This document shows positions 5,701 through 46,100 of a stretch of DNA of 60,220 nucleotides, piece by piece. Every line of letters starts with the position of its first letter. Position 1 is the first letter of the stretch. The notes under the pieces were generated by a model. The model was not told where the DNA came from, did no database searches, and saw only the letters and a program-made list of their open reading frames with translations. The translations under genes were made by a program, and so were the position numbers. The DNA is from Paecilomyces variotii (Eukaryota): the NCBI GenBank assembly GCA_004022145.1, contig RCNU01000016.1; one strand, given 5' to 3'.

Positions 5701-6842
5701 TTATTTTTAAAGTCTTTTATATAATATTTAAGCTATAATTTTCTTAAGCACTTAAGGCGGCTAAAATCTAGGGACTTACTATACTTTATATAAAATAGTC
5801 TTAATATATTATAATAGAGTAATCTTAAAATAAATTCTTTTAATATTCTCTATAAACTATTTTAAAATATTTTCTCTTTTATAAAGTAACTTTAATAGTA
5901 TAACTCTTTTATTCTCTAAAAGCTTTATACTTATAATTAATTATTCTACTTATTTAGAAGTTAAATAAGACTCTTATATAATTATTATAATTTATAGCTA
6001 TAGATATTTATTATATAATATCTCTATATTTAGTACTAAGTTTCTGTAGTAATATTCTAAATATAGCTCCTATTATCTTAGATCTTCTTTAGGTATTTTC
6101 TTATTATTTAATCTCCTTAGGTTAATAGAGTTTATCTTATTAGCCTTTTACTTCTTTAGTATATTAACTGCTATATAAATATAGTTATAATAGCCTATTT
6201 ATAGCTTAAGGTCTAATTACTTTAATATTTTATATTTAATATTTAAGTCTATAAGATTTAGGCGGTAAAGGAATTTTACTAGATTATCCTTAGCCTCTAA
6301 TTAGCTAATTAATTTTATAGGTTATAATTTATAAAATCTTAATAAATTAAAAGTCTGCATTTTTACAGTTATATATTTTATTCTAATTACTTTAATCTAG
6401 ATATATAAGTTTACTAGTATTTTTATTACTACTTTTCTTTATCTTTTAGTAAATATTATACTAGTAAAATAATATCTGCTTAAGCTTTTAAAGACTTTAG
6501 CTAAATATTCTTTATTATCTTAATATTTTAGTCGGTTAGTCTATATCTAATAAACTTAAAGTAGTTATTTTAAATCTAAGTAAATAATATAAAACTTTAA
6601 CGTTAAGTCTCTTAGGCTAATTAAATCCTCTTAAATAAGCTCTACGTTTATATAATATAGCTAACTGTATAGAAGCCTATAGAGATTTAGGGCCTCTTAT
6701 TAGCTAAGAGTAAATACTAAGTTAATATAGTTATATATAATAACTATCTATAAGAATATTAAAATCTTTTAAACCCGCTAACTTTTAAGTCCTTTAATTA
6801 GCTTAAGGTTTATACTAAGCCGGTATAGTTATACACAACAAC
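2770..6842 (-). pseudogene. pol: Gypsy pol (RT, RNase H, integrase), RIP-inactivated
   Basis: Reverse-strand translation IFLNNISIKGSYLKYN at 5283-5330 restores to FLDDIGIKGPYSKY by transitions only; integrase core motifs at ~3550-3850. Confidence 0.82.
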
Positions 6843-7060
6843 TAGAGTAGTTATATAGGCGGTTCGGTTCGGTTTAAAGGGGGAGTTAAACCGCCTATAG
6901 CGGTTTTCAGTTTAAGGTAGAAAAACTGTACTTAAACTGAACTATATTCTAGTAGTTTAGTTTAAAACCGAAAAAACTAAAGTATTTGCTAAGATTATGC
7001 GCTAAACTAACTTAAGTTAAATTAACTTAAACGGTTCGGTTTAAATAGTTTATATAGTTC
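6835..7060 (+). repeat. Left TSD, TIR and subterminal GGTTC/AACCG pentamer repeats of the hAT
   Basis: ggcggttcggttcggttt at ~6858-6875, aaaccg and acggttcggttt units, plus RIP-decayed versions (gtttagttt). Confidence 0.85.
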
Positions 7061-9027
7061 GCAGTATTATAGATATTAAAGCTCTATATTATTTTATATT
7101 ATTATTAGTTATAGACCTTTAAATCTATAGCTAAAAAATAGTTTAAATATAATATTATTATATTAATTTAAAAGTAAAACTATAAAGAAAGTCTTTTAAG
7201 ATATTATTAAATATATATATATATAGAGTTATAGCTATAGAAATATATATATTTATAAACTATAGTGCTAATATAGTATTATTATATATAATATATAATT
7301 TTTCTTAAAAGCTTAAGTTATTAAACTAAAGAATATATATTTAACTACTATTACTATTTTAAATAAAAAGTACTTTCTAAATTATTCTTTTAATAAGTTA
7401 ATAAAAAATCTATATATAATTAATAAATTATAACTTCTAAAGAAAATCTTATATACTTATATAACTTATTAAAAATCTAACTTAAGTTAAAACTATTAAG
7501 ATTATATTATACTCTTAACTATTTCTTTTTTATTTAAATATAGTTTTTAAGTTAAATATTATTCTCTTATAATAGACAATCCCTTATTTAAGCTATTAGA
7601 CTTAACTATTCTATAATATATTAGAGATACTTATTCTGCTTTAATTTAGCTTTATTAATATAGTATTATAAAGATAAAATTAAGGTCTTTTTTCTTACTA
7701 ATTTTAAGAAATAGTTTTATGCTAGAAAAAGAAATTAATATAATTATTTTTAGCTAGAGTCTTATAAATCGCAATCTTAAATTAAAAGATACTTTCCTTT
7801 ATTATAATATTTCAGAGAAGTAATTAAGGCAATTCTTTAGATATATTAAATTTATTAGTCTTAAATTAAATTAGCTATCTATATCTTTATAGGTATATTA
7901 AATATAGTAAGCTAGACTTTTTAATAGTTTTTTTAGGTAGCCTATAAATAGAAATATATATCTTATATATTAATATTAGGTAATAAAGTTTATTAATTTG
8001 CCTTTTAAATAGTATTAAGAAAAGAAAGGAGATAAGGGTAAATATAAGGATTGCTGTTAATCTTATTAAAGCTATTAAGCTTAGTAAATTAGGCGAGAAA
8101 TATAGTAATTTCAGATATAGTAGCCTTAGGATTAATAAATAACTCTTTAAGAATAATTAAATCTAAATCTATATTGCAGGCTATTAGGGAGTTAGCAATT
8201 TAGGGTTAATTTAATTTTCTAATACCCTTAAGTTAAATAGAATAATTTTAGAAGAAGAATAATTATTTTTTATAAAATAATAAGAAAGAAATAATAATTT
8301 CTATTAAGAGTCTTCTATATAAAAAATTTAAGAAAAGAATCTAAATTTTATATTCTAACTTAAGTTAAAATATATTAAAAGTTTCTGCTAAAACTTTAAA
8401 GGCTATAAAAAAAAGGTCTATTATTTTAAGAAATATACTCTGCTAAAAAGTAAGAGAGTAATAATTTTTTTTATATAATAAGTCCTACTATTAATTAAGA
8501 GATAAATAGTTAATATAATCTAACTTAAGTTAGAATGTTAACTTCTTAATTAGGACTAGTATAAGTTATAGATTATATAAACTAATTTTATTTTTTTCTT
8601 ATTATATTTATTTCTTTTCTTAAATATATTTTTTATATTTTTCTTACTAATTTTAACTTAGTTAGAATTGGCTTTTTATATATAGATAAGAAAATCCTAT
8701 AAGAATAAAATAATATCTTATTAATATTATTATCTTAATTTAAATTCTTCTAAGACTCTTAGTATAATAAGCTTTTAATCCTTACTTTAGTAGTCTATAT
8801 TTTAACTTAAGTTAGAATACTGCAGATTTATTTACTCTATTATAAGATTTATAAAAATAAGAACCCCTAGATTATTTTACTAAATATTAGAACCCTTAAT
8901 CTATTTTATTACCCTTTAAAAACCCTAGTTTGCTTATAAATAAACTTTAGTTAAATAGTCTTAGTATAAAGTCTCTTAATAATCTTAACCTATTAGACTA
9001 TATATTTTAACCTAAGTTAAAACTAAA

Positions 9028-11990
9028 ATGCCGCCTAAAACTAGTCTATTACCTAAATTTATTATTCCCGCAGTATTATTAAAAAGAAAAAAAAAAAATT
9101 AGCTAAGCAGAGTTTAGTAGAGATAGCTTTATTAATCTTTTCTCCTTTCTAGGAAGATACAGTTTAACTAAAACTTAAAGAGGTATTTCTTAAGACTCTA
9201 TATATTAATATATAAGATCTAGATAGTAAATAGAAAGATAAAGAAAAAAATTATAATTTTAATAAAGATTATATAAAGAACTTAAAGCAGGAATTCTAAG
9301 TAGCTATTTAATAGTAAAATATTAGCACTCAGATAAAAGTAATAATAAAATATAGCGACTTTAAATAAGTTATTAAAACTTTTATTAAAAACAATAATAT
9401 AGATAATGCTAATACTATAGAGGCATATAAGGAGGTATATAAGGAGGCTCTTAATATTATGCGCTCTAGAAATAAGATAGAAAGAGATATATTTATCTAT
9501 CTTAATAAATAGCTAGATTCTGTTTAGAAACTTATTTTTTAAGTAAGATAATATTGCTAAGCTGCTTTATTAGAGCTTCTGCTTAAGCAGACTTAAGTAG
9601 TTATTACTTATATTAAGACTTCTAAAGGTAAAACTATTTAAAAAATAAGTCTTAATATATGTTTTTATTTTAACTTAAGTTAGAATTTAGCTAATTATAG
9701 ATTAATAAGCCTAGTTATAGGCAGTTAATATCTATAATAAAGAGAAGATAGATATAGAATTATTAACTATATTATGCTTAAACTATAAGAAAATAGAGAG
9801 ACTTAATATAGATAGAAAATATATACTAGCTTTAATTTAGGCCTTTAAGCAAAAAGATTAAATATAATAGAGAGAGTTACTTAAAAATATAGATAATTTT
9901 AGAAAGTAAGTTTAGCCAGTTATTAGTATCTTATTAAAATATATAGTATGCGCTTAAGCTCTCTTATAAAAAGACTTATAGATATAGTAGATTTTAAACT
10001 ATATTTATACTCTATATAGGAGAGTATATTATAACTTTACTTTTAGTAAGCTTATAATTAATTTAAAACTAAATTATATAAGTTAAGAAAATTACTTAGT
10101 AGTTCTTAATTATTCTAACCTAAGTTAGATTTAAAAAGCTAAGTTTAGAAGGTTTAAAAAATAGGCTATAAAGATCTTTATAGAGAAGTTTAGCGCTTAT
10201 ATCTTAATAAATAATTAGTAATTTATTATTAATTATTATTACTAAGCTAATAATAATATGCTAAGAATATTATTCTTTCTATTTAGGTCTAATTATAAGA
10301 GAAATAAGCTATACTCTGCCCTAGATAAAAAGTAGTTTTTTAAACTGTCTCTACTATAGTTAATAGTAGAGGTTTCTTCCCTTAAGAATCTTATAAGGAG
10401 ACTAGGATTTCTTATTATATTAAATAATAAGGACTATATAATAATATAGAAAAACCTGTATAAAAATAATAACTTTAAGTTCTCTTTTTAGTAAGATTTA
10501 ACTTAAGTTAGATATTAAAGATATAATATTAATTAGTTATAGAAACTTATAGGTCGAACTATAAAATAAAGTAATTAATCTATTAAAAGCTATATTTAAA
10601 TATATAATATTTTAGTACTAACTAGAATAATATTATTTATCTCTTATATCTAACTGTTTAAAGATATTTTAATAGGCTTATAAACTTTAGTTAATTCTAT
10701 TTCTTATTATAGAGGACCCTAATGCAGCTGCATATTTTATTAATATGTTTCTTAATAAGATCTATAAAGACCCCTATTAGGGCTAGTAAGACCTAAAATA
10801 AAGTATAAGCCTTTATTTAATTTAAGTTAGAATTTAGACTAATCCTTTTTAGCTAAATAAGCTACTAAATATACTGCGAGATATAGATATTATTAAAAAA
10901 GATAAAGACTATTATAAGGAGTATTAAACTTATTTATTATAGTTTAACTATTATTATTAGGCAAGAGTCTTATAAAAATACTTAAAAATAATTAGAGGCG
11001 AGTTTAAGGGCGTTATAAAAAAGTTTAGTAATACTATTAAGATTATAAGTTTTAAAAAAACTAACTTAAGTTAAAACTAATATAATATAGGGTAACTATA
11101 TATAGACTTTTATAGACTTTAAAAATATAACTATAAGAATATAATTTTAATAGAATTATAATATTAAGAATATTTATATTTTAAGATATTATAAAAAAGA
11201 ATTAAAGAAAAAGGCTAATCTACTAAAGGCGCTATAGACCTACTAGTATATAAAAACTAATATAATTAAAATACTGAAATTAAGCTAGAGAAAAGCTAAC
11301 TCTTAAAAAGAGGATCTTATCTAAAATAAAATATATATATTATTAATTTAACTTAAGTTAGATATTAATCTAATATAAGAGAAGTAAAATAATTATCTTA
11401 GAGCTTTGCGGGAGGTAGCTAATCTACTTATATAATAGGATTAAGAGCCTAATATTAATAATATTAATAAATTACTAGCCTAATATATTATTAATTATAA
11501 TTTAATTATTTAGAAAGCTATTTAAGAGTAGAAAAAAATATATATAATAAAGCTAGGTCTGTCTATTAAACTTTTATCTAAAAAAGAATTAATAAAGGAT
11601 AAAAAATAAAAGAAGAAGCAGGAAAACTTAGAATAATTAAGATATATAAATCTTAACTTATTATATAAGAAGCAGAAAATCTTAAGAGACTTTATTAGAG
11701 CTTACTTATAAATAAGTATATTTTATCTAACTTAAGTTAGATCTAAGATTAATTTATTATAGACTATAGATTTAATATAAATAGCATAATAAAATAAGAG
11801 TAATAAAGTAATCTAGGCTAACTTAAACAGGCTTTAGCAAGAAAAAAAAGATAAAAAAAAGGAAAGATAGAATAGGCAGATATTAATTAAAGTTTTAATA
11901 AATAAGAAGAAATTAAGGTTTTAGTAGATATTAATTAAGGTTTTTTAAGGGATAAGAATTTTAAGAGAATAGTAAATTATAATAATAATA
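9028..11990 (+). pseudogene. Multi-intron cargo gene of the hAT; predicted ParB/Srx-like (DUF3723-like) N-terminal domain, RIP-inactivated
   Basis: ATG CCG CCT AAA at 9028 (probable slip in the A-run at ~9087-9098). Codons ttt taa gta aga taa tat tgc taa gct gct (9537-9566) restore by transitions only to LQAGQHRQAA; upstream NRxFDEDHVKNLKQEF (~9249-9296); downstream AWLWAVDIYD..LRSN..PDTDG (~9709-9820). About seven short introns. 3' end approximate. Confidence 0.62.
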
Positions 11991-12809
11991 ATTCTTATAA
12001 TTTAATTAAACTAACTTAAGTTAAAACTTTATAAATAAAGCAATTTTTAATATAGTAATAATAGGCAATTAATAAGATCTTATAGTCTATTATTTTATAC
12101 TACTAATATAATAAACTATCTAATATAGTAAAAGAGTAAATAGTAAGTATAAATTCTAACCTAAGTTATATTTAAATAGGTGCTTATTTAAAAATATAGC
12201 ATTTATAAAAAATCTTAATCCTAAAGATTAGCCTTCTAGTATAGTAAGTAATTTAAGTATAATAGATTAAGGTACTGCTATTAACCTATCTTAAGCATAT
12301 TATTTTATAATTTATTAACTAGACTTAGCTTACTAATATTAATATAGATAGGTTCTGAAAAATATCTAATAATAAAAAAAAAAAATAAAAAGTCTTAGAG
12401 ATAAGATACTTCTGCACTATTGCGATTAAACTTTTTAAGTAAATTCTAACTTAAGTTAGATTTAGGTATATTATTCCTAACGCAGAATTTCTTATACTTT
12501 TTTCTAGGCTAAAGTTATTTAATATATTTTAAAGTTTTAATAGTTCTTAATTCCCCTTATCTATAATTTTTTTTTAACAAAGTAAAACCCTTACTTCTTA
12601 TTATTATTTTAAAAGATAATAATAGTTTTTAATTATAGAATATTTAGTTCAGTTTAATCTTATAAAAGCTTAATATAATCTAATTTTTATCTTAGAACCT
12701 TTAAATATAATAAATAAGAATTTAACTTAAGTTAGAATGCTATAGATATTATACTGCCGCCTATATTATTATCTTTAAATTTCTCTTCCTTATCTTTTTT
12801 TAATGTAGA

Positions 12810-15400
12810 TATATTAAGATTACCAGGTCCTTTATTATAGTTTTAGAATTATGCTATTTATACTTCTATAAAAACCTATAAGACTTCTTTATCTTTAGAT
12901 ATTAATATCTAGAATACTAATTTTAATTATAATTCTATTAAATAATCTAAGCCCTAATCTGAAATTAATACTCCTAACTTAACCTAACTTAAGATAGTAA
13001 GATATAGTTAAATAAAGGCTATTATTTATCTAGCTCTTCTAGAATAAGTTTAAATCTTTAAATCTTAATAAATTAAAACAGAGTTTGCAAAATAATAATC
13101 TAAGTTTTAATAAGTAAAATTAAAAACTTAATTAGCTATATAGTAATACTATTAAGAAGTTATAGATAATATATCTAGCTTTTCTTATATATAATATCTA
13201 TATTACTTAATATTTCTTTAATATCCTTATAAAGGAGGAAATAGCACTAGCTTAATAGCTACCTATATAAAAAGGGCCGTATATAGATCTAGAGATAAGA
13301 CTTAGAAAAATAGTAATATTTAAAATATATTAATTGTAAAGGTAAGAACTAGTTAATTATTATAAACTTTATTACTAATATTTCTATTAGAAAATCTTTA
13401 ATCTAATATATATATTAGACGCGTTACATAATTAGATCTTATATTTTATTACAGAATATTGCTAATTATTTTAAATAGTTAAATATATTTAGTTCTGCTA
13501 TATGCTATATACAGCTGCTAGTAATTTATATCTAGAATTACTTAACCGATATTAGATTTAAGCACGCCTTTTTAAACTTAAAGAAATTAATTATATAGAA
13601 ATATTATTATATTTACTTAAGTAAAGAAAGATTTCTCTAATATTAGATTATTAGACTAGTTAAAGTTAATATTCTTTTCTTACTATAATAGGGTATTTTA
13701 TTAATATAAAATAAGTATATAGAGAAATACTCTTAGCCTTTAATCCTGTTTATAAATTATATATTAGGAAGAACTTAGTTAAAATAATGCTAAAGAATCT
13801 TTATTAATATAATCTATAATATTAAATCCTTACTATTATAATAGATAATATAAGTAATAATATTATTCTAATAGTAGAGCTAGATAAAAGCCTAAGAGAT
13901 AAGCTTAAGATAAATTTATTGTTAGAAGATTTCTAAGATATAATATTAAGTTAACTTATTTTAAATTGCTATTATATTCTATATTTAGTATATATTTTAT
14001 AATTTATAGTTAATGCTTTATTAGGTAAACTCTATATTAATACTCCTATTAATAATAGTATTAGTTAGGATATAAAAAAGAATAGAGGCCTATTATATCC
14101 TTAAGATATCTTAATATTATTAGAAAAGGTATATTCTCTATTTAATTTAAGTTAGATTAATATTAATAGGTTTTTATATAAGTTCGCAAGGTTACTAGAT
14201 TTATTAATATAAGCCCTTAATATTAAGAATATTTCCTAATATTATAATAATTAAGTATTAATTAATTAAAATTATTACTTCTTAATTGCTAGATATAATA
14301 GAATTTAATATATTTTATATTTATATATACTCTTAAACTATATGCAGTAATTAGATAATTTATTATATTATAGGCTAATAAAGATATTTATTTTCTAATA
14401 TTATCCCCTACTAAATAGTATTAGATTAAATATCTTATTAAGTTAACCTAGCTATTCTATAATCTTACTCTTATTGTATTAAAGATAAATAGTCTATTAG
14501 TTTATAGGGTTTTTAAAATTTATAATATTATCTTTAATTATCTTAATAATTATATAAAGCGTTTAAAATTAAAAAGAGCTATATAGAAGATATAATTTTA
14601 AAATATTTTATTTAAAGCTTATAATAAGTTACGAACTTATTATATTAAAATATATAAATTTTAAGGATTTATATATATAATTATAATAATCCTTTACCCC
14701 AGTTTAAAGCTTAAATATTTTAAAATTTAAGTCTGGCAAGATATAATAAAAAACTAGTATAATATTTATAAAAAGATTTTTTATAAGGTATTTTAATACT
14801 ATAATAATTAAAATCTAAATATTAAGGTATAATTAAGAACTTATTTATCAGTCTTAATATTAGATTATGCGCTTATATAATCTAAATATTATTATCTTCC
14901 TTTAAGTACTACTAGTACTTATTAAGAAATTTAGACTTATCTTATTAAAGGTAATATTCTATCTAATATTATACCCAAATTACATAGTTTTATTTTAACT
15001 TAAGTTAGATTAGCTTTATTAGAATTAGATAATATCCTTAACTATTAGAGAATTAATAAACATTAATTTCTAATTTTTATAATAATAGCCTAAGATTTTT
15101 TTATAATCTTATTAAGTAGTATTAGTATAGAATAATTATTTAATAGTACTTAAGATATCTGCTATTACTAATATAGCTAACTACTTCCTAATATAATCTA
15201 TGCTTTAATACTTCTTATATATATTAAAAATTTTATTATTCGGCGGGAGTTTAAGGCAATAATTAATAATATAAATATAATACTTAATTATTAATAATCT
15301 AAAAGAGAAGAGACTAAATTGCTAAACCTAATTAGTAATAATAAGGATATAGATAATATATTAGAAAAAGAGATAGAGGTTAATAATAAAGATTGTTAAA
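12810..15400 (+). pseudogene. hAT transposase (BED finger, DDE core, hATC dimerisation domain), RIP-inactivated
   Basis: De-RIPed motifs: GGNGTSSMATH (~13233-13266), SLxLDCWTS..GYFID..WxYREILL (13634-13736), TITTDNASNN (13832-13861), PCLAHILQ (13979-14002), LNYWR..MARDF..SVGVERLFNSARDICHYRRSQL (~15037-15183). Introns at ~13342-13390, 14129-14181 and 14951-15022. Start approximate. Confidence 0.92.
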
Positions 15401-15739
15401 TAGAGTAATTTAAGGGTTAAGGTCTTTTAAATATTTAAATAGATTAACCTATTACTAACTCTATATATAATAAAGGAGAATTAAATTAATTGCCTATATT
15501 TAGAGCTTTTATATATTCTTAGAGGAATATAGTAACTATAGATAGACTTAAATCTTCTAATTATCGCTTGCGCTAGATTAACTATATTAAAGGCTAATAT
15601 AAATATTAGTAATCTAACTTAAGTTAGATTTAATTATTAGATCTAATATCTTTCTATTAATTTCTATTTAATATTTAATAATAAATATTATAAAAGAATA
15701 AATAGTTCTTAAAGGTCTATATAAAAATTAAGATTAATA

Positions 15740-15957
15740 TAAAAAAACTAAAAAACTTAAATAAAACTAAAAAAACTAAATAAAATTGAAAAAATTAAAC
15801 CTATCTGAACTATATAGTGCATTATAAACTATTAGTTTAGTTTATAAAATCTATAAACTGTTCTAGTTTATAAAATAGTAAACCGAACTAAACTATAGGC
15901 GGTTTAATTTAGTTCGGTTCGGTTTTTTTAGTTTACTATAACTACTCTAATAATAAC
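15740..15957 (+). repeat. Right subterminal AACCG/GGTTC repeats, TIR and TSD of the hAT
   Basis: Runs of aaaactaaaa, aaaccgaactaaac (~15879-15893), gttcggttcggttt (~15912-15925), then TIR 15937-15949 and TSD 15950-15957. Confidence 0.85.
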
Positions 15958-21386: not shown

Positions 21387-24300
21387 CTAAGTTCTATCTA
21401 CCTTATATAAAAAGAAGGAGGTCTTCTATAGTTTTAATTTTATCCTATATTAATATCTTTTAAGTAAATACTTCTAATTTAATTAATAATATTATATTAT
21501 ATCTTATAATTACTCTAAATAGCGTTAAATTAATAAAGGTTTTAATTATATTCTTATCTGCCTAGATTATAGCTAGTAAATAATCTACTTAATTTATCCC
21601 TATTTTTTTATAAGTTTCTTAATGCTGCGTATAAAAGACTTATATATAACTTTAACTACTTTATTTACTTATAGGTTATATAGTAAGACTTTAATATAAT
21701 TAATCTTATATTTCTATACTAATATATTAATTATAATTTTATTCTCTAATCCTTTATTATTAATAAGAGTCTCTATTATTTTTTAATAATAAATCTAGTC
21801 TTCTTATAGAAACTTAATAATAGCTCTTAAAATAGGGCTATTAAGTGCTTTATATTTAATCTAGCTAAAATTATCCTAAAATATAATAATATAAATCTTT
21901 TCTTTATTAGGCAGCATAATCTTATAAATATCTAGATATAGCTTTAATCTCTCTAATAGAATAAATATTAACTATAAAGCTTCTTTTATATATTCTTTAT
22001 TAGCTCTCTAATATTTATTATATATCTTTATTTATCTAGTAATATACTTATATAGGCCTTTCTACTAATATTAATTAATTACTTTCTTATATATTGCTTT
22101 ATATTTTTAATATCTATATTCTTTATAAAAGGCAGTAAGAATCTCTTTTTACTTTCCTTTATTATTAATAACTATTTAATAAGGCTAATTCTACTATATT
22201 CTCTAGAAAAGAATACTATCTTGCACTATATACTTTATAGCCTTCTTCTTAAACTTAGCATATTATCTCTAATCTATATTATCTGATTTTATTATAGTTT
22301 ATAATTATTCTGCGATTAGCAAAGACTTTTTTAACTAATATAATATAGGCATTAACTAAGGGATATTATTTAATTCTATTTCTTATATATTAGTATAATA
22401 AATTATATAAAACTGTAGATCTAAGAATTCTTTTATATTATTATCTTCTATTTCTTTTAAGTCTTATTTTATTATTAGCTTCTAAGATAATCTATCTATA
22501 ATTAAGTTTTTTTTCCCCGATATATAGATAATATTAAAGTTAAATAGCTAAATCTAAATAATTCACTAAATAATTATTAACTTAGAGAAATCTATAGCTG
22601 TCTTATTTAATTGTATAACTAGAGTTTTTATATCTATCTCTAGTTAAAAATATATATTATATAAATATATTTAGAATTTATAAAGCGCCTTTAGTATTAT
22701 CTTATATTCTAGTTTTTTTCTATTATATTATCTCTCTACCTATATCTATACTCTACTTTTATATCTAGCTGGGTATCTCTTATTAAACTTTTTTTCTTCT
22801 TAAATAAATTATACTCTTTATTTATTACTATTAGTATTAATATTAATAATAATTATATCTCCCTTTTTATAATTAATTGGCTTAAGTATTAGTGCTATTA
22901 TTAGGGCTATTTTTAAAATATCTATTATTTCTTATTATTCTAACCCTTAAAAAAAGTCTTATCTCTTCTTTAGTATTAAGTATATTAGCTTAGCTTTAAT
23001 AATATATTCTTTAATTTATATTTAGTAATAGACTATAACTCCTAGAAATTCTCTTATTTTTTATAAATTCTAATAAAATAGCTATTTTAAGATCTTAATT
23101 ACTTTAGCCGACTTAAGATATCTCCCTTTAGTATTATATATATAGCCTACTACTTTAATTCCTAATACTATAAATTATAATTTCTCCTTAATAATTATTA
23201 AATCTGTAAGTTTAAGACTATATAATACCTTATTAATATTCTAGATATATTTAAATATAAACCTTCTAATTCCTAGTAGTATCTCTTCCCCTTTATAATT
23301 AGTCTTAGATTCTTATATTAGTATATTATTTAGAAATATATTATAGATATTAGAAATATTATCTGCTAATATTTTTATAACCCCTTATATAAACTCTTAT
23401 ATTATATTTATCTATCTTTAGAATAATCTAGCTTAATAAACTAAACTAATTTCTAATATATAGAAAGCTGTTAAGTCCTATAATTCTTTAGCTAACTCTA
23501 ACTAATTATACCTAGAGAATAAGTCTATTAGTATTAATACTAATATTCTACTAAACTCTTCTAAGAACTTATTAACTAAAGGGGGTAGATTAATATCTTA
23601 TATTATTATTTAATTAACTTCTATAGCTATATTAATTAGCTAATATTTATTATTTTTCTTTTTTACTAGAAATTATAGATTTTAATAGGGTCTTTAACTG
23701 CATTTAAGGATCTTTATATTTATTCTCTCTTTTATTATTTTTTATATTATATTATAGAGTGTCTTTAATATTAGGAAGCTTTTTACCTGCTATAGTTTAT
23801 AACCTATAGTCTAAATAATAATTAAAGATATAACTTTTAAGTATATTTATCTAATCTCTTTAAAGGTCTAGATAAAGGCTATTTTTTAGGTAAAAAGTAT
23901 TTCTATTAATAGTTCTTTCTCTCTTAACTATAGATTATTTTTTATAATAAGGTTCTTTAGATAGTCTAGTATTAATCTTATTTCTTTTTTAATATTTAAT
24001 ATCTTTAGCTAGATATATTTAGTAAATCTTTTATATATTTTTTTTATATTTTTTTAAGGGTTCTTATAATAATACTCCCTAATAATTTCTTTTTATTTTA
24101 ATAGCCCCTCTAAAGCTATTATAAGTCTATTTAATATATTTACTAAATAAATCTTTTTATATTTCTTCTTATATTATATATTAATAGAATATTTTATTTT
24201 TATAATAAAAAGGTTATACCTTTTAGATAATTTATACCCCTATAATCTTCTAACTCTTTTATTTAATTTAGTAGGTTTAAATATCCTTACCCCTTTATTT

Positions 24301-27174
24301 TTAATTTCCTTGCTTACTCTAAAGCTAATATTATTTATTAAGTATAGCTTCTATAGGCCTTCTCTATTCTTAGTCTAGTACTTATTATTCTTTTCTAGCT
24401 CTAATTTAATAATTCTTATACCTAGGATAATAGATTATATAATATCTCTTTCCTTAATTTATTTCTTAGGTTATCTATTAAAAATACCTATATTACTACC
24501 TAATTCTTTTAGTTTATAGAATAAATTATATTTTTTATTATTTTATTAAATAAGGCTATATATTTTAAGCGTGCTTAATATTTAAATAGTTATCCTAGGA
24601 TATAGTTATAATTAATCTTATTATTTATTATAAAGAAAGGGATCTTATAATAGAAGAATTCTATCTATATAAGTATCTTTTTATAAAAACTTATAAAAGG
24701 AGTTTATCTGCTATTTGCTAAAATTATATTGCCCTTAAACTTTTAGCTTATAATAAGTTTATAGTAATTTGCTATATCTCTATATATTATATTAATTTTA
24801 GCTCTACTATCTATTATAATATTTTATAGCTTTTTATATCTATTAATTTTAATAGATAGTTTTAGAGTTATAGCTGTATATAATACCCTATTATTATTAA
24901 GAGGCTTAAATTATAATAATATATAAGTATACTAGTTTAAACTATTTATTATATATTTTATATTAGATATTAAAATATTAAACTATATAGTTTTAGAGTT
25001 ATAAAATAATGCCTTAGTTATTACTAATTGCGGTTAAGGGATAAATAAAGCTTTATAAAGCCCAGGAGATAATCTAATAAGATCCCTAATAGATATTTAA
25101 ACCTTAATATTTAAGATCTAGTTTATAATACCTATTATATCTATAGTCTCTTTTAGTTTATTTGCTATTTTAAACTTTCTTAGAGATAGTTTCCCTTTTA
25201 TTTTAATTATTTTCTTACTTTTATTTAATTTAGGTGTTTTTTTTATATCTTTATCTACTATTCTTATTTGCTTAATTATATTTAATAGCTAATAATTATT
25301 AAACTAGTTTGTTTTAACTAAGAGAAATCTTTACTTTTATTTAATTACTCTTTGTAGTTTTTTTTTATACTATTATTTAATCCTACTCTATCTCTTCTTT
25401 ATTTTTTAAGGCTTCTCTAATTCTATTATATTAACTAAATAATAATCTTTTATAATATTGCTAGCTTTTTTTTTAGAGCTTAAGTTATTATTAGTCTATC
25501 TTAATATAATAGACTATATATTATATCTAACTGAACTAATTTATTTTTATTCCTTTTTTAATCTCTGTTTAATAATTGCTTTTTATAATATATTTCTTTA
25601 GATAAGGTAGATAACTTCTCTATTTTGCCCTTTTAGCTTAAAATAGAGTTTATAATCTTCTTCTTAATAAATAAGTTTCTAATTTAAGAGATTTTTTAGA
25701 TTTAAATAATAAGGTTAAATATAATTAGGAGCCTAATAGAAGTTATATAAGTTTAGAGGAATTCTAGATCCTCTAGCTAGAGTAAATCTTAAAGATACTC
25801 TAGCTTATATATTTATATTAGTATTAAGTATATTACTATTAGGCCTCCCTATATATTATATACTATATAGTTTTAACTTTTTAAATTTTTTTATTAATTA
25901 ATTAATCTATAATTGCTTTATTAACTTTATTTTAGTGCTCTATTATTTAATCTTATTCTTATTCTTATTTAAGTAGGTTTTATTAAGTTTAATAAGAAAT
26001 TATATATTATCTTTTTTAGTTATCTTCTCCTTTATTAAAGCTACTATATTTTAATCTTTCTCTAGTTTTCTGCTATTAAGGTAGCAAAGGGTTTTAGTTA
26101 TTCTTACCCTATCTACTATCTCCTTATAGAAATTAATATATTTTATAATAGATAGAGTATAATAGTCTATATTTAATTTTTAAATTACTTATTATTTAAG
26201 TTTCTTTAGAAATTCTTAAAAATATTAAACTCTCTATAAATATTAGCTTAACTTATCTAAAGTTACTAGTATTTTTAATATAGTTTAATATTTTTAATTA
26301 TATTCCCTTAAGTCCTTAGAGCTATTATATTTTATATTTTTAAATCTTTTTAGCTATTAGATATTATATTTCTTTTAGTACTTATTATAGTAGGTATATT
26401 CTTATTTAATTGCTTCTGTTAGTTTTAGATAGTTCTTTTTTTTATATTTAGATTAAGTATTTATTTATAATAATACCGACAGACTATAATAGTCTATAAA
26501 TTATTTAATTTTTTCCTTTTCTAGGAGTTAATTTATCTTATATAGCCTTTTAAAAAGCCTTAAATACTAAATAATATTATCCCCTTTAAAATAAGGTACC
26601 CTAAGATTCTTAGGTATTAGCATCTATAAAGCTAATATAATCTAGATTAATTGCGCTATTAGTAATCCTGTATTTTTAAATACTTAAGCTATTTATGCCT
26701 CTAGACCTAGTAATACTAAAGAGCTAGGAGTCCTTCTATCTTAACTAATATTAAAAAGATTAATGCTTTTCTCTATATTTTTTTAAAGAAATAGTAATAA
26801 AGATAATAATAAAAAATTCTTTTATTTTTTAATAAATAGTTCTTATTTAGTAATTTTTTATTCTTTCTAAATTTCTGCTTTTCTTTTATACCTATTAAGC
26901 TCTTCCTTATATTTAGCAGTTCTTCCTTTCTTTTATTATTAATATATATTTTTACCCTATATTATTTTTATTATCTCTGCTAATCTAAGAGATATATTTA
27001 TTTTTTTTTATTTATAATAGTAATCTTCCTTAATTATTTTGCTTATCTTTTTACTACTTTTTACCCCTTTTTTTAATTTTAGCTTTAACCTTAGCTTCTA
27101 ATTCTCTTTTCTTTCTTATTTCTGCTTAATATTTTAATATCCCCTATATTTAGCTCTATTTTATTATAGGAAGA

Positions 27175-43110: not shown

Positions 43111-46100
43111 AATTTAATCTTTTTTATATATAAGCTAGCTATATATAGTAATATTCGGTTTTAATACTAAGTTTAAAAAGACTTTCTTTATAATATAAAT
43201 TTTATATTTAAATATATCTTAAATTATAATATTATTAAATTTATTTAATATAAATATTAAACTAGTATTAAAGTAATTATATAAGTTAAATTACTAGTAA
43301 AGTTTCTTAGTTAATAATAGATTTATTTTAAGCTTTAAAATAAGTAATATATTTTTTAAGTATATAACTTTTTTATTCTATTTATTTAATATAGTAGTAT
43401 TTATATATTTTATATATAAGATTTCTTCTATTTAAATATACTTTCTCTTAATTTTTACTAATAATTCTTTAAAGTAATAAGTTTTATTAGTTATATATAA
43501 ACTAGTACTACTATTAATATATTATTAAAGTAAATTCTTATTAATTATATTTTTTAATAAATAAATAATTTTATAAGAGACTTAATTATTTAATATAATT
43601 AAATTAAGCTTTAAATATAATAATTTAATATTAGAGATTTCTTTTATTTTATAGGCCTTTTATTTTCTTTTTTAAGATCTTTTCTTTTTTAAGAATTAAA
43701 CTTTTTAAAATAGCTTAGCTATTATTTTTATTAATTTTTAGTCTATAGATAAAAATAAGTCTTTTAAAGATTTTTTTCTCTATCTTTAAATATTTTAAGT
43801 AGCTTATTAAGTTATAGGTAATTATAAGTAGTCTTTAATAAAATAGTTTTTTTTATATATATAGTATTTAATAAGTTCTTATTTTTTTTATATAAAATAT
43901 ATTTAATAGAGAAGCTTAAAATTTAGCTTTTATTTCTTTAAGAATAGTTAAGATATTTTTTATTCTTAAATATTTTTAAGTATTAATTGCTATTTTAGTA
44001 ATAGTATATTTATTAAATAAATTAAAGAGTAAGTATTAAATCTTAATTTTAAGTTTAACTAGAGAAAATATAATATTATTATAAGCTATTATTTTCTTTT
44101 CTATTTATTATAATTATCTTTATATATTAATAATAATCTATTTAAATATTATTTTAAAATTAATAAATAATTAAATAAGTTAGTATTATTAAGTAAACTA
44201 AGTCTTTTTATATTATTTCTTAAAATAATTTTATAATACTCTAGTAATAATATCTTTAATATATTTATTTTAATTATCTTTAGATAAGTATTTTATAATC
44301 TAGTATTATACTATTATATTATTTTTTTATAATAAGTTACTGTCTTATTATTAGTATTTAATAATATTTTAATAATTCTTACTAATAAGCTATTTTTTAT
44401 ATAAATAAACTATTTTTTATAATTTCTTTTAAAAAGAGTAAGAATTAATCTTTTTTTTTAATTATTAGAGTTATTAATAGAGAATATTATTATTTATATA
44501 TAAAGTAATTTAATTAATTCTCTAATTATATATAGAGTAATTTAATTAATTCTCTAACTATTAATAGGTTTTAATACTTATTAAATTTAATATCTATAGT
44601 AAGTATTAAAGTAATTTTATTATAATACCTTTCTTATAAGAGTATTTAATAGCTATTATTTTAAATCTTATAATCTTAATAAAAAATTTTATATTACTTA
44701 AGTATTTATTTTCTTAAGTTTTTATTAACTTAAGTTTATAACTATTTAAAAAGAGTAAAGAATAAAATAACTTTTATACTAGCTTTAAAAGAAAATATAA
44801 CTTAAAATAAAGATAAAGTATAAGAGGTAAAACTAATATTAATATATTTTTATACTATAGTTAGTTAATTATATTAAGTTAATTAAGTTCTTCTTTTAAG
44901 CTAATATATTTAATATAAGAATTTTTTATTAAGCTAATTATTCTCTATAACTATATATATAATTATCTTAAATTCTTTTATAAGAGAATCTCTTATATAT
45001 TCTTTATATAAACTATTAGTCTTAACTACTATATTATAATAAAGAGTATATAATATATTTTTAATAGTATATTTAAAGCTAACTTTATTAAAGGATAATT
45101 CTTTTAATAAATAGCTATAATTACTACTAATACTATATATAAAAAAATAATATAAGAACTTATAAAATTAAGAAGCTTATAGATAAATATATTTAATATT
45201 ATTATTAATATATTATAATAAAATACTTAGTTTAATAAAAAGGCTAAAGACTAAAATATAATATATGATATAATATTAATAATCTTAAAGATATATTAAA
45301 GCTAATAAAAGAATATAAAAATAAAATTATTAAGAGTTCTTTATATTTATTATTAAAAAAGAGATTATTAACTTATTTAGCTAATATTAGTAATACTTTA
45401 TCTATTTTACTCTTATACTATACTTATAGCTAACTTTAATAAAGTATTAGCTTAATCTCTCTTATTTAATATAAACTATTACTTATTCTATATTATTATC
45501 GAATATTAATATATTAATAAATATCTTTATACTTAATAATAAGAATAAAGGCTATATTATAATTATATAACTAAATATATAGTTAATAGAATAATTTATC
45601 TTATAGGAGAAATTAAGACTTTATTATAATATTTAAATAAGAGAAATATTATAAGATTATAAGGCTAAATAGAAATAATAATTCTTAAACTTAATAAGAT
45701 ATTTAGTATTAATATATATAATATATACTGCTATAGTAATATTAGTATAATTAAATAATATTCTAGAATTCTATTAGTAAATTAAAATATATTATTAATA
45801 TATCTTTAAGAAAGAATATTATTATATTATAATAATAGAAAAACTTAATATTAGCGTTAATAATAATTATAATAATATTTATTATATTAATAATAAAATA
45901 AGTAATATAGCTATAAAGTTATTAGCTTTATCTATTAATATCTTTAATAAGGTTAATATCTTTAGTAATAAAAAAATAAATAATAATAAAGAAACTAGTA
46001 ATAATAAAGAAATAAGTAAAGTAGCTATAGAAATACTAGCTTTATTTTTACCTTTAAATATCTTTAATAAAAATTATCTCTTTAGTAATAAAGTAATTAA

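Follow-up and report, generated by a model that had tools for sequence, protein, structure and literature searches.

We analysed a 60,220-nucleotide stretch of Paecilomyces variotii DNA (contig RCNU01000016.1 of assembly GCA_004022145.1; hereafter the window). At 6843-15949 on the plus strand it holds a 9107-bp element, which is a formerly autonomous cut-and-paste transposon of the hAT superfamily that was killed by repeat-induced point mutation (RIP). The element is a real but unusual hAT variant: 21 copies of an unexplained 16-bp dyad motif, TCTAACTTAAGTTAGA, run along its whole length. Its hAT identity was read from terminal inverted repeats (TIRs), an 8-bp target-site duplication (TSD), subterminal CGGTT repeats, a trace of the hAT dimerisation domain, and the presence of at least two copies. 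A sequence-only reading of the same DNA had proposed that the palindromes and a ParB-like cargo gene form a ParB/parS-type module; this part of the proposal is a weak lead.

The limits of the element, as first proposed, held up. The TIRs, TAGAGTAGTTATA, are 13 bp long and perfectly inverted (6843-6855, plus strand; 15937-15949, minus strand). They are flanked by the TSD, which reads ACAACAAC on the left (6835-6842) and ATAATAAC on the right (15950-15957). The two sides are identical at 6 of 8 positions, and both differences are C/T transitions, C>T on the right relative to the left; flanks as alike as this pair occurred at 146 of 50820 random offsets. CGGTT/AACCG repeats were found 13 times, 12 of them within ~200 bp of an element end (left subterminal set, 8 sites at 6860-7041; right subterminal set, 4 sites at 15881-15924). 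A second copy of the element's left end, cut off at the window start, lies on the minus strand at 1-1372. Aligned with 1372-1, positions 6843-8210 showed 91.8% identity, rising to 99.4% in purine/pyrimidine code, with 107 transitions against 5 transversions. Because this match begins exactly at the TIR, it fixes the left boundary independently. A RIP-tolerant pattern covering the opening 22 bases of the left end had no other occurrence in the window, and a search for older copies by purine/pyrimidine BLAST pointed to the second copy alone. RIP-degenerate DNA patterns designed to find unmutated copies returned 0 and 0 hits in metagenome contigs and 0 in viral contigs. Near the right end, at 15740-15799, there is also an A-rich tandem repeat with a period of 9, 19 or 28, which gave the top, spurious scores in RIP-aware profile scans.

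RIP is familiar from filamentous ascomycetes, and the whole window is a block of heavy RIP, as its extreme indices show: TA/AT is 1.37 and (CA+TG)/(AC+GT) is 0.14. The G+C content is 12-24% in each 1-kb bin of the 60 kb. RIP and AT-rich blocks have been documented in P. variotii, in a report whose accessible portion does not mention hAT elements (PMC6300479).

We then asked how strongly the palindrome is enriched. Allowing up to 3 mismatches, the 16-mer matched 23 times in the window, against a shuffle mean of 6.07 and a shuffle maximum of 13 (0 of 100 shuffles reached 23). The matches are specific to the element: 21 lie inside it, in line with the number originally estimated, and the other 2 lie at the corresponding places in the second copy. 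The 10-mer core gave 18 matches where 0.77 were expected. In an unbiased word count, the only 10-12-mers strongly repeated in the element were sub-words of the palindrome, trivial words aside. Counted against the 16-mer consensus, the copies at 8519-8534, 11726-11741, 12445-12460 and 15613-15628 have 0 mismatches. Those at 7476-7491, 8354-8369, 8801-8816, 9669-9684, 10114-10129, 10497-10512, 11347-11362, 12721-12736 and 14994-15009 have 1, those at 7006-7021, 10816-10831, 11060-11075, 12010-12025, 12155-12170 and 14141-14156 have 2, and those at 9006-9021 and 12983-12998 have 3. Conservation covers all 16 positions, and where copies depart from the consensus the change is nearly always C>T or G>A. 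Palindromes 7006 and 7476 are retained in the second copy (1194-1209 and 720-735, respectively) and thus predate the last transposition. The exact 10-mer core, AACTTAAGTT, also occurs at 44727-44736, outside both element copies; its flanks misfit the 16-mer (more than 3 mismatches), and we saw no homology to the element around it.

Several explanations for such a repeat were set aside. A longer 'introner'-like unit was rejected because conservation stops at the 16-bp core, in ungapped as in MAFFT alignments of the flanks. A diverged tandem array was rejected as well, the stretches between copies having no mutual homology; a tandem repeat scan revealed nothing that accounts for the palindrome. 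Excision footprints of hAT elements or nested insertions would vary from site to site. An ancestral CCAAC...GTTGG sequence was dismissed on dinucleotide survival, 0 of 42 half-sites keeping CA or TG when about a quarter of such dinucleotides survive element-wide. A stable hairpin was also excluded: folded as single-stranded DNA, the palindrome reaches only -2.9 to -4.4 kcal/mol, a weakness that fits recognition as duplex DNA. A search of Rfam returned two miRNA families at E 0.2, far below thresholds.

The sequence of the motif constrains where it can lie. The consensus is a perfect dyad, identical to its reverse complement, and all three of its reading frames contain a stop codon; in 19 of the 21 copies all six frames are stopped. 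It follows that the copies do not code for protein and that those within genes can lie only in introns. The palindromes are also more evenly spaced than chance: the average spacing is 430 bp and the minimum 145 bp, a minimum reached by 4 of 20000 random placements. Half-sites are scarce outside the palindromes (3 found; shuffles expect 6.3 occurrences in all).

We lean, tentatively and with less than even confidence, towards the view that the 21 palindromes are sites where an element-encoded, sequence-specific DNA-binding protein docks as a two-fold-symmetric dimer. The putative binder would be either the N-terminal DNA-binding domain of the transposase or an accessory protein. Its sites would lie within introns and spacers; once bound, the dimers would coat or bridge the 9-kb element. 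By analogy with other hAT elements, the transposase itself would have recognised the CGGTT repeats and made its cuts at the TIRs. Recognition by a dimer explains why the full 16-bp dyad is kept, why lone half-sites are scarce, and why copies occur near both ends as well as inside. The core, ACTT|AAGT, consists of two inverted AAGT words. A precedent comes from the hAT transposase Hermes, whose BED domains bind AAG(T/C), two of them binding a quasi-palindrome of such paired sites cooperatively (PMC10368747).

A number of observations weigh against recognition by a dimer. AAGT is not enriched in the element (168 occurrences versus 152 +/- 11 in shuffles) and is not concentrated at the ends, where only 4 of the 132 sites outside palindromes fall within 300 bp. 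Single AAGT sites enriched at the tips, as in Hermes, were thus not seen. The CGGTT repeats already hold the usual place of transposase sites, and no binding protein was identified for the palindrome. Only two copies of the element were seen, and both are dead. Finally, a role in splicing would explain part of the conservation, because CTAAC, the branch-point consensus of fungi, stands in the palindrome, followed by AG at 5 and 9 nt.

This last point leads to a different explanation, in which the palindromes are the 3' modules of introns in two plus-strand genes, supplying the branch point CTAAC and the acceptor TTAAG or GTTAG. The dyad symmetry would be a by-product, GTTAG being the reverse complement of CTAAC. 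The six-frame stops, which force intragenic copies into introns, are in keeping with this idea, and so is the position of particular copies. Palindrome 9669 lies 42 nt past a GT at 9628 that follows an exon identified by homology (see below), which would make a 55-nt intron. Palindrome 14994 lies within the transposase span, 22 nt upstream of the hAT-domain match; the same low-stop frame continues on both sides of it, and a GT is found 54-58 nt upstream. GTA(A/T) precedes the palindromes asymmetrically, within 15 nt in 7 cases on the plus strand versus 1 on the minus strand and within 60 nt in 14 versus 7, and the 145-bp minimum spacing fits a minimum exon size. However, the GTA asymmetry is modest next to the element-wide ratio of 89:67, the flanks show no strand asymmetry in composition, and many of the nearest GTs lie at 21-27 nt, a distance below what a fungal intron needs. 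Conservation also extends to the central TTAA and the outer T/A, although CTAAC and YAG suffice for splicing. Palindrome 7006, among the CGGTT repeats and 164 bp from the left end, and palindrome 15613, which lies downstream of the transposase gene, probably do not fall in introns. Lastly, the scheme needs ~11 introns in 3.7 kb, which is unusually dense for this kind of fungus. We consider intron modules possible but clearly short of probable, and prefer recognition by a dimer. The two are compatible, because sites with stops in six frames can be kept only in introns and spacers.

What can be said of the proteins encoded by the element? Most of the protein evidence has been erased by RIP. The presence of a hAT transposase, part of the original proposal, is weakly supported by one domain trace. 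An X-read, RIP-mutated piece (15010-15240) matched the hAT C-terminal dimerisation domain (PF05699) on the plus strand at 15031-15210, with an E-value of 0.0037 and 17.5 bits, under the curated cut-off of 21.4 bits. This match is the sole protein evidence for the transposase; it was the only family match in the element, bar a spurious Mre11 cap match at E 0.017. Stops are fewest in one plus-strand frame over 14403-15360, and purine periodicity appears in the same frame; from stop counts and purine periodicity the transposase gene would span approximately 12738-15400 on the plus strand. Whole X-read frames, all six, matched 0 Pfam families. Segments were rescanned piecewise, since long queries miss weak Pfam matches, and 10 segments of the heavily RIP-mutated 12700-15009 gave no Pfam match to the DDE / RNase H-like core or to the rest of the transposase. 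With the mutated transposase as query, a word-based protein search left no match at E up to 10 among 8000 candidates. An ATG directly follows the GTTAGA of palindromes 8519 and 12721 (8519-8540 and 12721-12742), and another lies 7 nt past palindrome 9006 (9006-9031). The ones at 12721 and 9006 are candidates for where the transposase and the accessory gene region begin, respectively, though all three may be chance.

In its short TIRs, 8-bp TSD and subterminal repeats, and more weakly in its hAT dimerisation-domain trace, the element resembles the hAT elements Hermes, hobo and Ac; Restless is a fungal example of the superfamily. Unlike known hAT elements, it is 9.1 kb long, has a second gene, and bears a 16-bp perfect palindrome over its full length, not just near its ends.

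The second gene lies upstream of the transposase on the same strand, and homology reveals one exon of it. An X-read frame of 9102-9638 searched with HMMER against 1.84 billion representatives retrieved a single protein, P0001 (E 3.6e-11, 43% identity), an intact P. variotii protein. Pairwise BLASTP of the exon against P0001 gave 80.9 bits (E 7e-25). In a RIP-aware alignment, a log-odds model of C>T and G>A decay, P0001 scored 93.9 bits over 9357-9662, versus at most 23.8 bits in 10 shuffles and 22.1 bits at the next-best site in the six frames of the window. The exon was placed at 9357-9635 on the plus strand. Of the 98 positions aligned, 41 already agree with P0001 in the mutated sequence, and the number rises to 80 once residues that RIP reversal can restore are counted. 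A 12-nt tandem duplication (2.4 copies) inside the exon, at 9420-9448 on the plus strand, corresponds to a gap of 3-4 residues relative to P0001. At 9537-9566, also on the plus strand, the raw translation F*VR*YC*AA aligns to LQAGQHRRAA of P0001, which reads KKPVLQAGQHRRAALSELL in full context. The de-RIPed motif first predicted from the mutated DNA, LQAGQHRQAA, was thus essentially right.

P0001 belongs to a cluster of 9 near-identical 'hypothetical proteins' of P. variotii (for example, XP_028483058.1), from many strains, with few substitutions and with differing C-termini. Word-based searches found no further relatives, and tblastn of P0001 against plasmids and phages gave irrelevant matches at E 2-7. 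P0001 stays open for 46 codons beyond the shared exon, whereas the element has a palindrome 42 nt downstream; the P. variotii locus therefore lacks a palindrome within 138 nt of that point. The P0001-P0009 models read through a stretch that is intron-like in the element, and for this reason the P0001 locus may be a relic or a mis-modelled gene.

The second gene had been described as multi-exon; the match to P0001 proves one exon of it, not several. An alternative is that the 'cargo' is a captured or shared gene fragment of ~95 residues, that the rest of 9000-12700 is non-coding filler, and that the palindromes have nothing to do with an accessory protein. Homology is confined to residues 5-102 of P0001, ~100 residues. 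Residues 92-284 of P0008, a 284-residue model, reached no more than 13.3 bits against 9620-10400, where the null extends to 14.8, and are thus at null downstream. Pfam searches of 18 X-read segments of 9000-12600 gave no match, and the coding signal of the accessory region is clear only around 9240-9480. P0001 is moreover an orphan with variable gene models. Yet the silence of Pfam is a weak argument, because the transposase body is equally invisible after RIP, and the plus strand is purine-rich over 9-12 kb, as is typical of coding strands. We regard a mere fragment as rather unlikely.

Next, we examined whether the accessory protein could be the ParB-like factor originally envisaged. P0001 and P0008 matched 0 Pfam families at E up to 10, with no match to ParB_N (PF02195), DndB/DGQHR, DUF262 or DUF3723 (PF12520). 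DUF3723, also raised at the outset, was equally missing from the window segments scanned with Pfam, among them the 18 segments of 9000-12600. In NCBIfam the only matches were EttA (E 0.099) and GvpU (E 0.16), and in PADLOC only DpdF (E 0.013) came up. Against the PDB a single-sequence search gave no match and a profile search nothing relevant; the ESM Atlas gave no usable match for P0001, and BLASTP against a rhizobial ParB gave E 8.9. Because library-wide E-values hide weak targeted signals, we built our own profiles, one for ParB_N from 30 Pfam-matched stretches in 5 rhizobial genomes and one for DGQHR from 28 of 38 TIGR03187 matches in 401 genomes. Residues 1-95 of P0001 scored 2.9 bits with the ParB_N profile, a score that 29 of 2000 shuffles equalled or bettered, and 6.1 bits with the DGQHR profile, reached by 2 of 2000 shuffles. 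Only 14 residues, GQHRRAALSELLLE, aligned. With hhalign, the comparison of P0001 to DGQHR had a probability of 27.7% (P 6.4e-4, 32 columns) and that to ParB_N a probability of 0.6%. The register with ParB_N is right, AGQHRRAA of P0001 falling on aGhRRlraa, and the bacterial DGQHR-family members compared read INDGQHRRAAIEEA.

The DGQHR domain is characterised by a near-invariant DGQHR pentapeptide together with a QR pair and FxxxN, and is placed in the ParB/Srx fold (PMC4619093). P0001 keeps 4 of 5 pentapeptide residues (AGQHR, D replaced by A). No QR pair was found in it; a QK lies 56 residues upstream of the motif instead, and FxxxN would fall past the known exon. On the mutated DNA, 9102-9638 scored 16.0 bits in a RIP-aware DGQHR scan whose null averaged 17.1, and RIP-aware profile scans of the element found nothing beyond the null at the accessory exon. 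Six-frame sites compatible with de-RIPing number 1228 in the window for G-x-H-R and 138 for GQHR, so G-x-H-R on mutated DNA alone carries no weight. The ParB and DGQHR tests are also partly circular, because the motif prompted the hypothesis. On the protein sequences, the resemblance between P0001 and DGQHR appears real but limited to the motif. That the accessory protein has a ParB/Srx-like fold is a minority prospect, neither probable nor negligible.

We can now weigh the original model. It gives the accessory protein a DGQHR-like ParB/Srx fold and has it bind the palindromes in the manner of parS sites and spread along the element or compact it. The parS site is a dyad of ~16 bp, the size of the palindrome, and many copies sit on one replicon-sized unit, as with bacterial ParB/parS. 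The G-x-H-R-type motif of the candidate protein follows a hydrophobic strand, in register with the GxRR box of the ParB_N profile, and GQHRRAA is identical to the motif of some bacterial members of the DGQHR/DndB family (TIGR03187, PF14072), a family of ParB/Srx fold; the two DGQHR scores given above also speak for it. Against this, just 14-32 residues align, the D of DGQHR is an A, the QR pair is replaced by QK, and family-level, profile and structure matches are lacking. No helix-turn-helix domain or cytidine triphosphate (CTP)-binding motif was identified in the candidate, the host is a eukaryote, and the 21 sites are evenly dispersed, not clustered as in ParB/parS. The P0001 locus has no palindrome in its 46 open codons, and nothing ties the accessory protein to the palindrome. 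The link thus comes down to one short protein motif, a weak lead and not a finding, and we judge the model improbable. A more far-reaching version, in which the accessory protein would be a very divergent eukaryotic ParB/Srx (DGQHR-like) member that dimerises on palindromes in introns and spacers, giving self-recognition or coating analogous to ParB/parS, seems very improbable.

How unusual would such a pairing be? The sequence-only reading knew of no described hAT with it, and our literature searches, which covered the palindrome word, fungal hAT elements with palindromes, and ParB among Pezizomycotina transposons, turned up no such element. However, algal DNA transposons with ParB-like accessory genes are already in print (PMC12477816), so the concept alone is not new. 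As in our element, the algal case involves a eukaryotic DNA transposon that carries an accessory gene with a proposed role in binding the element's own DNA. The authors of that paper recognised the ParB-like domain, which occurs there as a fusion with a methyltransferase, and the available portion of the paper makes no mention of a cognate repeated palindrome; our case differs in that the fold is putative, we saw no methyltransferase, and the element is a hAT in a fungal host. DUF3723 offers a second comparison, being a fungal accessory gene on mobile elements. One report calls it a conserved Starship cargo related to SMC (TIGR02168), that is, to DNA-binding chromosome-segregation proteins, and not to ParB (PMC9156397). 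Unlike DUF3723 genes, neither P0001, P0008 nor the scanned window segments match PF12520, and a pairing of DUF3723 with ParB was not found in the literature.

The surroundings of the hAT element fit a graveyard of mutated transposons. On the minus strand, the piece 22341-24680 gave a weak RT_RNaseH match (PF17917; E 0.0022, 18.6 bits) and an RT_RNaseH_2 match at E 0.089, and 24680-27019 gave a DUF4100 trace (E 0.017). The region at 22.3-27 kb is probably a RIP-mutated long terminal repeat (LTR) retrotransposon. Public runs containing at least half of the element's words were food-fermentation and grain metagenomes and ~34-Mb isolates. Two metatranscriptome runs held shares of only 0.19 and 0.12 of its words, which is uninformative on expression.

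Three gains are solid: a curated anatomy of a large fungal hAT element with a second gene, the demonstration that a de-RIP reading of one exon recovered a real protein motif, and the P0001 cluster, an intact homologue, itself an orphan, that opens the questions of fold and binding to testing at the bench. If a protein encoded by the element does bind the palindromes, the element would be a eukaryotic DNA transposon labelled with a cognate site over its full body and not just at its ends, which would bear on the pairing of ends in long elements, on self-protection, and on recognition by the host.

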